16,064 bases of DNA from Myxococcales bacterium (GCA_038320275.1 JBBQEB010000083.1:1-16064), one strand, 5' to 3'. Shown: positions 10,774-16,064, counted from the stretch's first letter. The notes: generated by a model from the letters alone, not told the origin. A program made the numbers and translations.

Positions 10774-11625
10774 ATGATCATCGACGGAGTGATGCTTCTG
10801 TGGTTCGCGCTGGTCGCGCTGTCGGTCGCCTTCGTGGCCATCGACATCCGGTCGACGCCCGAGAACCCGGTAATGAAATGGGGCTTCATCCTGATCACCC
10901 TCTACTCGGGGCCGTTTGGCGCGTTCTTGTACGTGCTCGGCTGCCGTGAGCCGCTACCCGGGCTCCACGAGCAGTATGTGTCGGCGCGCTGGCGGCAGGT
11001 CCTCGGCTCGACCATGCACTGCGTCGCCGGCGACGGCATCGGGATCCTCGTCGGCGCCGTGATCGGCTCGTCGATCGCCCTGCCGGTGCTCGCCGATCTC
11101 GGGGTGGAATACGTCCTCGGCTTCGGCTTCGGCTGGACGATCTTCCAGGCGCTGTTCATGCGCGACATGTTTGGCTCCTACGCGGCCTCGCTCGAGCGTA
11201 CTTTTCGCTCCGAGCTTTTATCGATGAACTGCTTGATGGGCGGCATGATTGCCGTATCGACGCTCGCCTGGGCGAGCACGCGGGAAGCCCACGATCCGGC
11301 GGCTCCGCTGTTCTGGTTCCGCATGTCGCTGGCGCTGATGTCCGGCTTCATCGTCGCCTTTCCGATGAATTGGTGGCTGGTGGCGAACCACCTGAAACAC
11401 GGCATGACGACGGTGCGCCCCAAGGACCAGGCCGGCGGGCGGGATGCCAGCGGCAGCACGGACAAGTCGGGGATGGACAAGGGCGACAAGGCGAAGGCCG
11501 AGGGTGGACCCGCCAACCAGGAGACGACGCCGTCCATCGGCGTCATGACCGTGGTGTCGTTCGCGGTGCTCGCCGCCGGGCTACTGATCGCCTGGGCCCT
11601 TGGCGGCTTGTCAGGTCGGATCTGA
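10774..11625 (+). CDS. DUF4396-like multi-pass membrane protein
   Basis: GAGGG upstream of the ATG; several hydrophobic helices; motifs STMHCVAGDGIG, GWTIFQALFM, SELLSMN..MGGM, LFWFRMS, FPMNWWLVANHLKHGM recalled from DUF4396 proteins. Confidence 0.8.
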   Translation: MIIDGVMLLWFALVALSVAFVAIDIRSTPENPVMKWGFILITLYSGPFGAFLYVLGCREPLPGLHEQYVSARWRQVLGSTMHCVAGDGIGILVGAVIGSSIALPVLADLGVEYVLGFGFGWTIFQALFMRDMFGSYAASLERTFRSELLSMNCLMGGMIAVSTLAWASTREAHDPAAPLFWFRMSLALMSGFIVAFPMNWWLVANHLKHGMTTVRPKDQAGGRDASGSTDKSGMDKGDKAKAEGGPANQETTPSIGVMTVVSFAVLAAGLLIAWALGGLSGRI

Positions 11626-11747: not shown

Positions 11748-12230
11748 CTATTCTCCCGCTCGATGCCCGAAGATCAGCCGGTACCACCACGAACCAAGAC
11801 ACCAGAGCGTCGTGGTGAGGAGGGCGCCCCCGATGACGACCAATCCTCCGAGGACAAAAGCATACCCCGGGTGCCCGTAGTAGAACGACAAGGCTGATCC
11901 CGTCAGGAAGGCCGTGGAAAGAAGGTATGAAAAGCGTCGCGGTCTGGGCGTCGGCGGTAGAGGCGGGGCGTGGAACAGATGGCGGACGGCGAGGTTGTAG
12001 ACCACATCGATCAGCATGCCGCTGGGAAACAGGAATCCGCTCAGGGCGACGAGCGCCATCGACCCAAGCCAGGCGGGGGACCGAAAGGCCAGCCCGATCA
12101 GGATCAGGGTGATGCTGACTCCCGGCGTGAACCGGAGCGCCAACAGGTACCTGGACTTGGCTTCGTCATCGAGCCGACTGAAGCCCTGCTTGTCCAGGTT
12201 GACACTTTCGAAGTTGCTGAGTTTTGCCAT
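11748..12230 (-). CDS. DUF4395-like membrane protein (160 aa)
   Basis: GGGAG upstream on the minus strand; four hydrophobic segments; PPTPRPRRFS and the C-terminal WCLGSWWY resemble the DUF4395 P-x-RF...C-x-G pattern. Confidence 0.7.
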   Translation of the reverse strand: MAKLSNFESVNLDKQGFSRLDDEAKSRYLLALRFTPGVSITLILIGLAFRSPAWLGSMALVALSGFLFPSGMLIDVVYNLAVRHLFHAPPLPPTPRPRRFSYLLSTAFLTGSALSFYYGHPGYAFVLGGLVVIGGALLTTTLWCLGSWWYRLIFGHRAGE

Positions 12231-12666: not shown

Positions 12667-13341
12667 CTACCCCGCCGGAAGCACTGCGGGGGAGCCAGCT
12701 CCAGACCCGGAGCTCGGGTGATGCGTCCCACCGGCGAGCGTGCAGCCGTGCATCGAGTCGCTCCAGTTCATGTGGTGACCGTCGGGCGCGGTGAAGCCGT
12801 CCGTCATCATGGTCCCCATCGCCTCCGTCATGTCGCTGTTCCCCATCATGCCCCCCGAGCCCATCATCCCGCCGCCGCTCGTCATCGCGCCCATCCCGGC
12901 CGCGCGCATCTGGAGGTGGTCGGCGTCCGCGGCCATCTGCTGGCAGTGCTGGGCCGCGAGCGCCCGGTTCTGGGCCATGTCGGCGGAAGAGCAGGCGACG
13001 TCGAGGTGCTGCTGGAGCACTTGCGCCATGACGTCCGCGCCGCAGGTCATGTCGGCGGCAGCCGACTGCCCCATCGAATGCATGTGCTCGTCCATGCCGC
13101 TCGAGGTCTGGTGCATCACCTGGAGGGCGCCGTTCATCTGCGCTGCGTACTGATGCGCAGCCGCCTCGCACTCGGCCGGCGCGGCCATGGACTGGGTCGT
13201 GGCCTGATAGGTCGACACCGCGCTCGAGGCGGACAGCGCCGAGCGCTGGTACGCGGCCACGTCGGTGGGGCTCACACCGGAGCCCGATCCACCGCACGCG
13301 GAGAGGGCCAGGGCTGCGGCGAGGGAGAATTGGGTCTTCAT
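12667..13341 (-). CDS. Uncharacterised Met/His/Cys-rich lipoprotein (224 aa), putative copper-binding
   Basis: ATG at 13341 with GGAG 7 nt upstream (3' part of the track ORF 12667..14988); lipobox MKTQFSLAAALALSA-CGGSGSG; hand count 24 Met, 12 His, 6 Cys; has its own sigma54 promoter. Confidence 0.85.
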   Translation of the reverse strand: MKTQFSLAAALALSACGGSGSGVSPTDVAAYQRSALSASSAVSTYQATTQSMAAPAECEAAAHQYAAQMNGALQVMHQTSSGMDEHMHSMGQSAAADMTCGADVMAQVLQQHLDVACSSADMAQNRALAAQHCQQMAADADHLQMRAAGMGAMTSGGGMMGSGGMMGNSDMTEAMGTMMTDGFTAPDGHHMNWSDSMHGCTLAGGTHHPSSGSGAGSPAVLPAG

Positions 13342-13391
13342 GGGTTGCTCCGTGTCGAGGGCCGCTGGAGTGCGGCGTGGCTCGACGCAAG

Positions 13392-13407
13392 AGCAACCGG
13401 CGTGCCG
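13392..13407 (-). promoter_or_regulatory. sigma54 -24/-12 promoter for the lipoprotein gene
   Basis: Minus strand CGGCACG-CCGG-TTGCT, near-perfect consensus, 50 nt upstream of the ATG. Confidence 0.82.
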
Positions 13408-13460
13408 CAGCGCGGCGCGCCCATTTTTCGCGGCTCTTGCGGCGCGCAGCCCCGCAGCGA

Positions 13461-13498
13461 CGTACGTGCCGGTACGCCTGACCGTACCGGCTGGTACA
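13461..13498. promoter_or_regulatory. Tandem palindromic sites (GTAC-N6-GTAC x2), putative shared enhancer
   Basis: GTAC at 13462, 13472, 13484 and 13494: cGTACgtgccgGTACg and cGTACcggctgGTACa, 22 bp apart, midway between two divergent sigma54 promoters. Confidence 0.65.
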
Positions 13499-13552
13499 CC
13501 TCCGCCGCGCGAAGGCCACGCGAAGGCCGTGCACGCCCGCGGGAAGTCCTGA

Positions 13553-13568
13553 TGGTATGTAGCTTGCT
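13553..13568 (+). promoter_or_regulatory. sigma54 -24/-12 promoter for the secreted-protein/TPR/barrel operon
   Basis: TGGTATG-TAGC-TTGCT; GG(13554-55)-N10-GC(13566-67); followed by GGGAG at 13599-13603 and ATG at 13611. Confidence 0.75.
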
Positions 13569-13610
13569 GCTTCTCGCCGACGGGCCGGTACGCCCGACGG
13601 GAGCACCTTG

Positions 13611-14021
13611 ATGTCCGTCTTTCACGCCTTCGCGCTCGCCGTGGTCCTGACCGCTGGGGACGACCCAGGCGCGGCGCGCGAGGCCGTGCGCGAAGCGCTC
13701 CGAGCAGCGGCGCCGCCGCCTTCGGGACGAGCGGTACTGCCGGAGGGCGCCCTGCCGGCCTCCCGGATGACCGACGCGACGCGCGCCATGAAGCGCGATG
13801 CGGAGCGGATGGCCGTCGAGCATGCGAAGAAGGGCGCCGGTCAGGCGCGGCATGAGGCCGGCGGCGCCGCCCACCGCGGCGAGCCGGGCGAGGCGATGCA
13901 CGGCGACCGCGAGAACGGCGATCCGAGCTGCGCTCCGGCCGAGATGATGCGCTCGCACGGGACGACGCCAGGCCAGGACCACTCCATGCCGGCCCCCGGG
14001 CCGCAGCACCGCGGCATGTAG
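13611..14021 (+). CDS. Small exported Met/His-rich hypothetical protein (136 aa)
   Basis: RBS GGGAG; hydrophobic N-terminus MSVFHAFALAVVLTAG; helical middle (RAMKRDAERMAVEHAKK); Met/His-rich flexible tail (AMHGD, AEMMRSHG, DHSM, QHRGM). TTG at 13608 is an alternative start. Confidence 0.7.
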   Translation: MSVFHAFALAVVLTAGDDPGAAREAVREALRAAAPPPSGRAVLPEGALPASRMTDATRAMKRDAERMAVEHAKKGAGQARHEAGGAAHRGEPGEAMHGDRENGDPSCAPAEMMRSHGTTPGQDHSMPAPGPQHRGM

Positions 14022-14037
14022 CCGGGTGTCGGCTGCG

Positions 14038-14643
14038 ATGATCGCGCTCCTGCTTGCTTTCGAGGTCCTGCTGGCTGCCCCGGGACAGCCCGGGGCCGAG
14101 GAGCACCTCCTCGCCGGCGCACGGGCGTTCCGCGAGGCGCGCTACGACGCGGCGCTGGTCGAGTTCCGGGTGGCGCGGGCCCTCGGCGCCAGCGACGCCG
14201 CCGGCTATGCGGCCGCCAGCCTCGTGATGCTCGGACGTGCCGAGGAGGCGGTGGAGGCCTTCGGCGCGGCGCACGAGGGGAGCGACGACGCTCTGCTCGG
14301 CTACTACCGCGCCATCGCTTGTCACGACGCGCGGCTCTACCTGTGCGCGGACCGACTCCTCGGCGAGGTGGGCGAGCGCGCCGGACCGCGCATCGCCGAG
14401 CAGGCCCGACGGACGCGCGCCGCCATCGCCGCCGAGCTGTCGCGCGAACCCTCGCGCGCCTCCGTCGACTGGTACCTCGCCCGGTGCGCCGAGCGGCGCG
14501 CCGACGGCCGGCCCGTTCTCGCCGGCGCGTACTGCGACGAGGCGGTCGCGCTGGCGGGGAAGCGTGGAGACCGGTACCGCCTGGCCGAGGCCGCGGCGCA
14601 GCGCGCGGCGATCCCGGCGGGCGCGGCGAGCGGTCCGCGATGA
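14038..14643 (+). CDS. Exported TPR-like helical protein
   Basis: ATG at 14038 (alternative GTG at 14026); signal-like MIALLLAFEVLLAAP; TPR-like EEHLLAGARAFREARYDAALVEFRVA and YAAASLVMLGRAEEAVEAF; four Cys; stop overlaps the next start (ATGA). Confidence 0.75.
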   Translation: MIALLLAFEVLLAAPGQPGAEEHLLAGARAFREARYDAALVEFRVARALGASDAAGYAAASLVMLGRAEEAVEAFGAAHEGSDDALLGYYRAIACHDARLYLCADRLLGEVGERAGPRIAEQARRTRAAIAAELSREPSRASVDWYLARCAERRADGRPVLAGAYCDEAVALAGKRGDRYRLAEAAAQRAAIPAGAASGPR

Positions 14644-16046
14644 CGGGCCTCCTCCTCGCGCTGGCGCTGGCTGCGGGCGACCCGTGCGCGCCGGTGGGGC
14701 CGGCAGCCGGCGCACCCGATGAGGCGGCTGCGCGCGCGTACCGAGAGGTGGCCGACGCGGAGCGCCGGGCAGGCGCGACCGAGACGGCTGCGCTCGCCTA
14801 TCGGGAGGCTCTGGCGCGTGACCCCGGCGACCAGGCCTCGCGGTCGGCGCTCGACGCGCTCTGCCGCGACCGCAGCGGGGCCCCTTCCTTCGGGCGCGGG
14901 CTGCATGCGATGGAGGCGGGCGATCTCCGCGCTGCGGCGCGCTCCTTCGAGGAGGCACGCGCGGCGGGTGCGGGTGCCCCGGCCACACTCCTCGAGGGCG
15001 TCTGCCTCTACGAGCTGGGCGACGATGCCGAGGCGCGGCAACGCCTCACCGAAGCGCGGGAGGATCCGGCCCATCGCGAGACAGCCGACCTTTACCTTGG
15101 GCTCATCGCCCTACGGGAGGGCGACGGCGATGCGGCGGCGCGCGCGCTCGACGCCGCAGGCCAGGATCCGCAGCTCGCCGCGCTCGCGGCGCCGCTGTCG
15201 CGGCTCGCCCGCCGCACCGGCCGGCTCGTCCTCGCCGCGATGGCTGCATCGGGCTGGGACTCGAACGCGCAGCTCGCGCCGAGCGGCACACCCATCGACA
15301 CCTCGAACGACGGGCAGCTCGACGTCGCGGCGAGCGCGCTGTACCGGCCGCTGGGCGAGAGCGGCCCCTACATCTCGGGTCGGGGACTGTTGCACCAGCA
15401 GTTCCGCTTCGGCGACCTCGATGCGTGGGGTCTCGGGGGCGCCGCCGGCTGGCAGCTGGGGCGAGGACGCCGCGCCCTCTGGGCGGAGTACGGGTACGAG
15501 TACCGCACCCTGGGCGGATCGCCCTTCCTGTCCGGGCACGGGCTGCGCGCAGGGGGCTGGGCGCCCGCCGGCCCGTTCACGCTCTCGGCATCGTACTTCC
15601 TGCGCTTCGAGAGCTACCGGGGGACCCTCTACCAGCCCTTCTCCGGGGCGTTCCAGAACGGCGAGGTGAGCGCCTCGGCGCTCCTGTCACCTGGGGCCCG
15701 CCTCTTCCTCGGTTACCGGCTCTCGCGCGATGGTGTGGACCTGCCGCAGCTCTCGTTCGTGGAGCACGGGCCGCGCGCCACGCTCCGGCTCGAGGTCTCC
15801 CCACGCGCGCGGCTGCTCGTGGACGGCGCCCTGTCGTGGCGCCTCTACGACGCGGTCGATCCGCAGCTCGGCCTCACCCGGGCCGACACCTACCTCGACG
15901 GCGCAGTCGGGCTGGAGTGGGAGCTCACGGCCCACACCTTCCTCCGCGCATCGGTCGAGGCGCGGCAGGCCTGGTCGAACGCCGCCGCCTTCACCTACTT
16001 CCGCCTGGCGCCTACCCTGGGGCTGGGTTGGGTGGCGGGCCTGTGA
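14640..16046 (+). CDS. TPR + outer-membrane beta-barrel protein, Slam/DUF560-like architecture (468 aa)
   Basis: ATG at 14640 coupled to the previous stop; signal peptide; TPR motifs (AALAYREALARDPGD, LLEGVCLYELGDDAEA, YLGLIALREGDGDAA); then ASGWDSNAQLAP and alternating aromatic strands (WAEYGYEYR, LSASYFLRFESY, LFLGYRLSR, VGLEWEL, LGLGW). Confidence 0.8.
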   Translation: MTGLLLALALAAGDPCAPVGPAAGAPDEAAARAYREVADAERRAGATETAALAYREALARDPGDQASRSALDALCRDRSGAPSFGRGLHAMEAGDLRAAARSFEEARAAGAGAPATLLEGVCLYELGDDAEARQRLTEAREDPAHRETADLYLGLIALREGDGDAAARALDAAGQDPQLAALAAPLSRLARRTGRLVLAAMAASGWDSNAQLAPSGTPIDTSNDGQLDVAASALYRPLGESGPYISGRGLLHQQFRFGDLDAWGLGGAAGWQLGRGRRALWAEYGYEYRTLGGSPFLSGHGLRAGGWAPAGPFTLSASYFLRFESYRGTLYQPFSGAFQNGEVSASALLSPGARLFLGYRLSRDGVDLPQLSFVEHGPRATLRLEVSPRARLLVDGALSWRLYDAVDPQLGLTRADTYLDGAVGLEWELTAHTFLRASVEARQAWSNAAAFTYFRLAPTLGLGWVAGL

Positions 16047-16064
16047 TCGCGCCCCGGGTGCTCG

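Follow-up and report, generated by a model that had tools for sequence, protein, structure and literature searches.

The window considered here, a 16,064-nucleotide stretch of DNA from a Myxococcales bacterium (GCA_038320275.1 JBBQEB010000083.1:1-16064), is the entire contig C83. At positions 12667 to 16046 it carries four genes that an earlier note described as a copper-linked envelope system: a Met/His-rich lipoprotein, a Met/His-rich secreted protein, a tetratricopeptide-repeat (TPR) protein and a Slam-like outer-membrane barrel. The genes are real, but a histidine kinase and a sigma-54 regulator were missed. The kinase gene starts at 16043, overlaps the barrel stop codon and continues past the contig end, so what was taken for a four-gene unit is the front half of a five-gene operon, with the conserved order small secreted protein, TPR protein, TPR/14-strand barrel, histidine kinase and sigma-54 regulator. 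We put at about even the chance that the operon encodes a two-component system that spans the envelope and regulates its own expression, with the barrel and TPR protein relaying a surface cue and a Met/His-rich branch that is probably copper-responsive; among the options raised in the earlier note, trans-envelope sensing fits best.

A conserved operon with a histidine kinase and a sigma-54 regulator

The four open reading frames, their signal peptides, the lipobox and the GWDSN motif were all confirmed at the positions given before. The parts of the locus are as follows.

12667..13341, minus strand: Met/His/Cys lipoprotein of 224 residues, lipobox Cys16; predicted four-helix bundle, no Pfam match, likely metal-binding, predicted to be controlled by the operon's regulator
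13393..13407, minus strand: sigma-54 -24/-12 element of the lipoprotein gene, 10/11 consensus
13461..13476, unstranded: palindrome 1 of the enhancer, GTAC-N6-GTAC, where the operon's regulator is predicted to bind
13483..13498, unstranded: enhancer palindrome 2, 22 bp after palindrome 1
13553..13567, plus strand: sigma-54 -24/-12 element of the operon, 9/11 consensus
13611..14021, plus strand: small secreted protein with signal peptide, conserved short helix, Pro-rich motif and low-complexity tail
14038 (or GTG 14026)..14643, plus strand: secreted TPR-like protein, about 55% identity between loci
14640..16046, plus strand: TPR domain and 14-strand outer-membrane barrel, GWDSN at the first strand; SlipAM-like, below the Pfam model
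16043..16064, plus strand: histidine kinase, first 7 codons, overlapping the barrel stop; the rest lies on contig C94

Among the 3393 proteins of at least 100 residues predicted for this genome with our own simple gene caller, the lipoprotein (16% Met+His) ranks second and the small secreted protein (12.5%) fourth, against a mean of 3.8%, in agreement with the richness claimed for them. Both sigma-54 promoters also stand, the scores listed being counted against the -24/-12 consensus. A Pfam scan of the four proteins gave nothing informative except weak TPR matches on the barrel, and a PDB sequence search returned generic TPRs only; named homologues are found in Anaeromyxobacter and Archangium.

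The last 22 bases of the window start the kinase gene with a GTG. Contig C94 of the same genome (locus L112) holds the remainder of a kinase (2-1207), 80–87% identical to the kinases encoded after the barrel in loci L021 and L022, and a sigma-54 regulator (1217-2548) for which the corresponding identity is 86–91%. From this synteny and the 80–91% identity we infer that C83 and C94 adjoin, with about seven codons missing between the contigs. The domain makeup is that of an NtrC-type sigma-54 two-component system: HisKA and HATPase domains in the kinase; receiver, sigma-54 activator and Fis helix-turn-helix domains in the regulator; and a -24/-12 promoter with an upstream enhancer. The kinase has no HAMP domain, and its sensor domain, with no conserved His or Cys and a single conserved Met, has no obvious metal site of its own. 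Just 3' of the regulator (C94, 2709-3458) lies a second paralogue of the Met/His lipoprotein, without an enhancer or a good sigma-54 site.

A single-protein search for related loci returned just two. A profile of the barrel domain matched 74 of the 401 genomes searched in the phylum, 70 of them at E < 1e-14, and 607 clusters of a representative library (129 at 1e-30). Among the 61 barrel loci examined, which are a selection of the matches, profile labels identified a TPR gene in 56 (fused to the barrel in four), the kinase in 52, the small protein in 50, the regulator, within the fetched stretch, in 49 and the Met/His lipoprotein in 12. The locus survey bears out the co-occurrence of the genes in other genomes; the lipoprotein is not the fixed member it was taken for, being present at 12 of the 61 loci and found also away from the operon. 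When a profile of the kinase sensor was run against the same 401 genomes, it gave 75 loci at E < 1e-15, and the barrel stood directly upstream in 72 of them (71 of 74 if the unpublished genome G215 is left out); coordinates were matched by hand, two pieces of G228 were counted once and 11 weak rows above 1e-9 were dropped. The three exceptions are the present contig break, a match at a contig start (G274) and a partial match (G365), the latter two in genomes split into 630 and 1260 contigs. Of the barrel's partners, the kinase and the sigma-54 regulator are the most constant.

Some loci and taxa depart from this arrangement. In one genus (L074, L085, L072, L073) inserted genes stand between kinase and regulator, or the regulator falls beyond the stretch that was fetched. 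At L103 (7849-10536) barrel and kinase share one 895-residue frame, likely an assembly error or a lost stop codon because the two proteins belong in different membranes. Several genera of the order that are well sampled gave no match to the barrel profile (g23, 0/11; g32, 0/21; g37, 0/32).

A SlipAM-like barrel

The AlphaFold model of the barrel protein consists of TPR helices and 14 strands, with a mean predicted local distance difference test score of 92.4. By Atlas features its nearest clusters score 0.95–0.97, on a scale uncalibrated for protein parts, with 159–197 features shared and SlipAM on 16–89% of the cluster members. To this extent the barrel is Slam-like, as first proposed, but membership of DUF560 was not supported: none of 19 barrel domains matched the Pfam SlipAM model (PF04575) at E up to 1, and none of 29 distant homologues did so at 1e-4. 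No Slam model appeared among the NCBIfam matches of 44 barrel members, and fold searches gave OmpG (Z 21.5, root-mean-square deviation 2.6, 235 aligned), CymA (Z 21.9, root-mean-square deviation 4.0, 272 aligned) and other barrels, with no Slam structure among the matches. The protein is best called SlipAM-like rather than a DUF560 member. Among the neighbouring genes scanned, which are a selection, none had a Pfam match to a TbpB-type eight-strand cargo.

The fusion of the TPR protein to the barrel in four paralogous loci argues that the two form one unit. Residues C16 and C75 of the barrel protein are both conserved and are both lost in the L093 and L096 fusions, which suggests a disulfide between them. 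A reading of the barrel as a lipoprotein was rejected, as it has no lipobox. At L180 (2802-3907) and L181 (4133-5250) an enhancer and a sigma-54 site precede a small secreted protein and a 267-residue, TPR-less probable barrel that has only the first-strand motif in common with the present one; homology of the L181 protein to the barrel could not be demonstrated (hhalign probability 3%, first strand only).

Enhancer targets and the copper-linked branch

Two outward-facing sigma-54 elements flank the tandem enhancer at 13461-13498, which is the sole strong tandem site in its genome (score 38.7; the next scores 14.5). Across the operon promoters a tandem GTAC-N6-GTAC enhancer is present in 41 of 48, with the 22 bp spacing in 31, and a sigma-54 site lies upstream of the small gene in 36 of 48 loci, compared with 58 of 837 other genes. 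A pattern search found the enhancer in 35 of 251 genomes and, with the pattern reversed as a control, in none. This co-occurrence leads us to predict that the operon's regulator binds the tandem enhancer. In all fetched loci 85 genes have both enhancer and sigma-54 site, comprising 45 small proteins and 40 others; 25 of the latter encode lipoproteins, called by a lipobox heuristic or by family membership (14 of the Met/His family, six DUF4382 and five others), against 187 of 3559 in the genome. The remaining targets include two cupredoxins, additional small secreted proteins and a few matches that probably arose by chance (e.g. L187).

In the small protein a short conserved head is followed by a disordered tail, which is rich in Met and His in one clade only. 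In a FastTree phylogeny of TPR protein, barrel and kinase from 44 loci, small proteins with at least 9% Met+His mark 24 tips, and these form a single clade (support 0.94). Close CusA, CusC or CopA homologues accompany nine of 28 Met/His-rich loci, and with looser thresholds a heavy-metal efflux gene, P1B-ATPase or cupredoxin lies near 15 of 28 Met/His-rich loci and none of 22 Met/His-poor ones, the background being 49 of 3762 genes; gene arrangements around the Met/His-rich loci vary from one to the next. The Met/His lipoprotein occurs at 11 rich loci and no poor ones, whereas DUF4382 lipoproteins, which often fill the partner slot in Met/His-poor loci, occur at no rich and eight poor loci. 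The copper link of the earlier note survives for this branch; as the operon's defining theme it is not supported. Met/His clusters bind Cu(I), and the Met/His-rich branch probably responds to copper, which it would sense or bind.

As had been expected, the lipoprotein is predicted to be helical, a four-helix bundle. It defines an unannotated Met/His/Cys lipoprotein family, present in 41 of 92 genomes of the window's family, with conserved residues C58, C100, C117, H112, H132, H142, M105 and M136; these point to a protein that may sequester Cu(I)/Ag(I). Fold searches gave generic four-helix bundles (Z 14 or less) and Atlas scores of 0.80 or less. CopM and DUF305 proteins are reportedly helical, Met/His-rich, exported and encoded beside a two-component system and efflux genes, in all of which the lipoprotein is similar; it differs in having no DUF305 Pfam match and in its conserved Cys triad, and the matches of the structure search bearing on CopM were generic helical bundles only. 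Twenty further lipoprotein regions were fetched, of which 19 have a called gene: four lie directly behind cusA or a Cu-type ATPase, including L144, which is also beside a full operon, and three near other efflux parts. The lipoprotein domain is fused to a multicopper oxidase behind a tandem enhancer at L154 (5312-7498; genome G278, with no barrel or kinase match) and to CxxCH domains in L159 and L161.

The cusCBA/copA genes, placed next to the four genes by the earlier note, are on the same stretch but end 2.2 kb away. Genes for the membrane proteins DUF4396 (10774-11625) and DUF4395 (11748-12230) intervene between copA and the lipoprotein, and local G+C content is lower there (about 64%). The window's cus promoter lacks an enhancer (score -21.8), and across all fetched loci no cus/cop gene was identified as a direct target of the enhancer. 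A HAMP histidine kinase on the minus strand (1-1160) diverges from a sigma-54 site (1244-1258) in front of cupredoxin-cusCBA-copA, and homologues of this kinase, together with a sigma-54 regulator, adjoin cusC in L026 and lie close to cus genes in L148. It is probably the real, CorSR-like regulator of copper efflux here.

Competing explanations and known systems

In the mechanism that we put at about even, an envelope or surface cue would be relayed across the periplasm by the barrel and TPR protein, which may contact the kinase sensor; the small protein might modulate the kinase as ZraP/CpxP-type accessory proteins do; and the regulator would switch on the operon itself and one or more lipoprotein genes, the induced lipoprotein in the Met/His-rich branch being likely to bind copper. 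The barrel and TPR protein are placed upstream of the kinase because its sensor has no conserved metal site and because the kinase was not found without the barrel wherever the contig allowed a check; QseG acting on QseE offers a model. Several observations weigh against this mechanism. Six second-copy barrels, all in genomes that also have the full operon and four of them TPR-barrel fusions, have no adjacent kinase, so that the barrel can serve a function apart from the kinase, and co-location of barrel and kinase could reflect co-regulation only. The enhancer matrix was trained on these same promoters, and G278 has the enhancer with no barrel or kinase match in a genome 90% complete. The copper branch is one clade of single origin, so its counts are not independent; 13 of the 28 Met/His-rich loci have no metal gene in the fetched stretch and 12 of the 19 further lipoprotein loci no efflux gene nearby. 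Since the cus promoter has no enhancer and has its own divergent HAMP kinase, the operon's regulator apparently does not drive copper efflux. A more specific account, which we regard as possible yet doubtful, has a Slam-superfamily barrel and the TPR protein bridge the surface to the kinase, transport of the small protein or lipoprotein being itself the signal, with one branch having become a copper sensor through Met/His tails and a new four-helix copper-binding lipoprotein family.

It is also conceivable, though somewhat unlikely, that the barrel and TPR protein are a Slam-type translocon moving co-regulated lipoproteins or the small protein over the outer membrane, while the kinase pair controls expression and senses a cue of its own. 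The SlipAM-like features and 14 strands agree with this, as do the enhancer targets, most of them lipoproteins, of which several carry Ig/TIG/Kelch domains as surface proteins typically do, and the retention of the small protein with the kinase-less fused barrels of L093 and L096; but there is neither a PF04575 match nor a TbpB-type cargo in the neighbour scans, the lipoprotein partners have unrelated folds and are often absent, the Met/His lipoprotein is present in genomes without a barrel match (e.g. G247 and G278), and this reading does not account for the absence of any kinase seen apart from the barrel. Export could instead be coupled to signalling, the barrel exporting a small protein that before export restrains (or activates) the kinase. 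We think this unlikely. The small protein opens the operon in most loci, accompanies both barrel and kinase and pairs a short conserved head with a disordered tail, but 11 of the 61 barrel loci, several of them with the kinase, have no small-protein match. Least probable is the dedicated copper-export or display system, acting with CusCBA/CopA, that the earlier note proposed: copper neighbours, Met/His richness and the oxidase fusion speak for it in this branch, but 22 loci of the same operon, seven of them in the window's own family, have no Met/His tails or copper neighbours, and no cus/cop gene was found as a direct target of the enhancer.

Comparison with known systems places the operon among accessory-protein two-component systems, as an undescribed variant of which one branch is probably copper-responsive; it was not described in the literature searched, which included few subscription papers and not the supplements of the type XI secretion papers, where related loci may be mentioned. 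DUF560 proteins have a 14-strand barrel, and the known Slam/type XI secretion cargo share an eight-strand barrel (PMC8406197). The operon resembles these systems (PMC8406197; bioRxiv 10.1101/2024.09.26.615229) in its TPR and 14-strand barrel, neighbouring lipoproteins and nearest Atlas clusters with PF04575, and differs in matching neither that model nor a TbpB-type cargo, in its separate TPR partner and in its fixed link to a kinase and sigma-54 regulator; the term 'two-component' is absent from the main texts of both papers. In QseE-QseG-QseF, as in the present operon, an outer-membrane component encoded in the same operon accompanies a kinase and sigma-54 regulator, which it controls through the periplasm (PMC6075780). 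QseG is a lipoprotein, whereas here there is an integral barrel with TPR domains and two more exported proteins, and according to that source QseEGF is not autoregulated, whereas the present operon carries a predicted enhancer. ZraP-ZraSR has divergent sigma-54 promoters, an autoregulated kinase pair and a metal-binding exported partner (the last only predicted here), but in the account available no barrel or TPR gene (PMC4987338); the small proteins scanned gave no match to the LTXXQ/Metal_resist Pfam domain. CorSR/curA of M. xanthus is likewise a myxobacterial sigma-54 two-component system with a copper cluster and His-rich and lipoprotein genes, but CorS has a HAMP domain, absent from the operon kinase, and curA is described there without a barrel or TPR gene (PMC3707914). 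A better candidate for a CorS-like protein is the HAMP kinase at 1-1160, beside the cus promoter.

Few integral outer-membrane barrels are tied to a classical histidine kinase, and work on Slam-like barrels has dealt with them as exporters in Proteobacteria. In this operon a role of a Slam-like barrel in signalling can be tested in a compact system: the defined enhancer gives a direct reporter, and the Met/His-rich, copper-linked branch and the DUF4382-linked branch form a natural contrast. The most Met/His-rich protein of the genome belongs to another secreted family (16–21%; G000:C5:4882-5352, L032:12512-12946, L145:7795-8307), which recurs near barrel loci.

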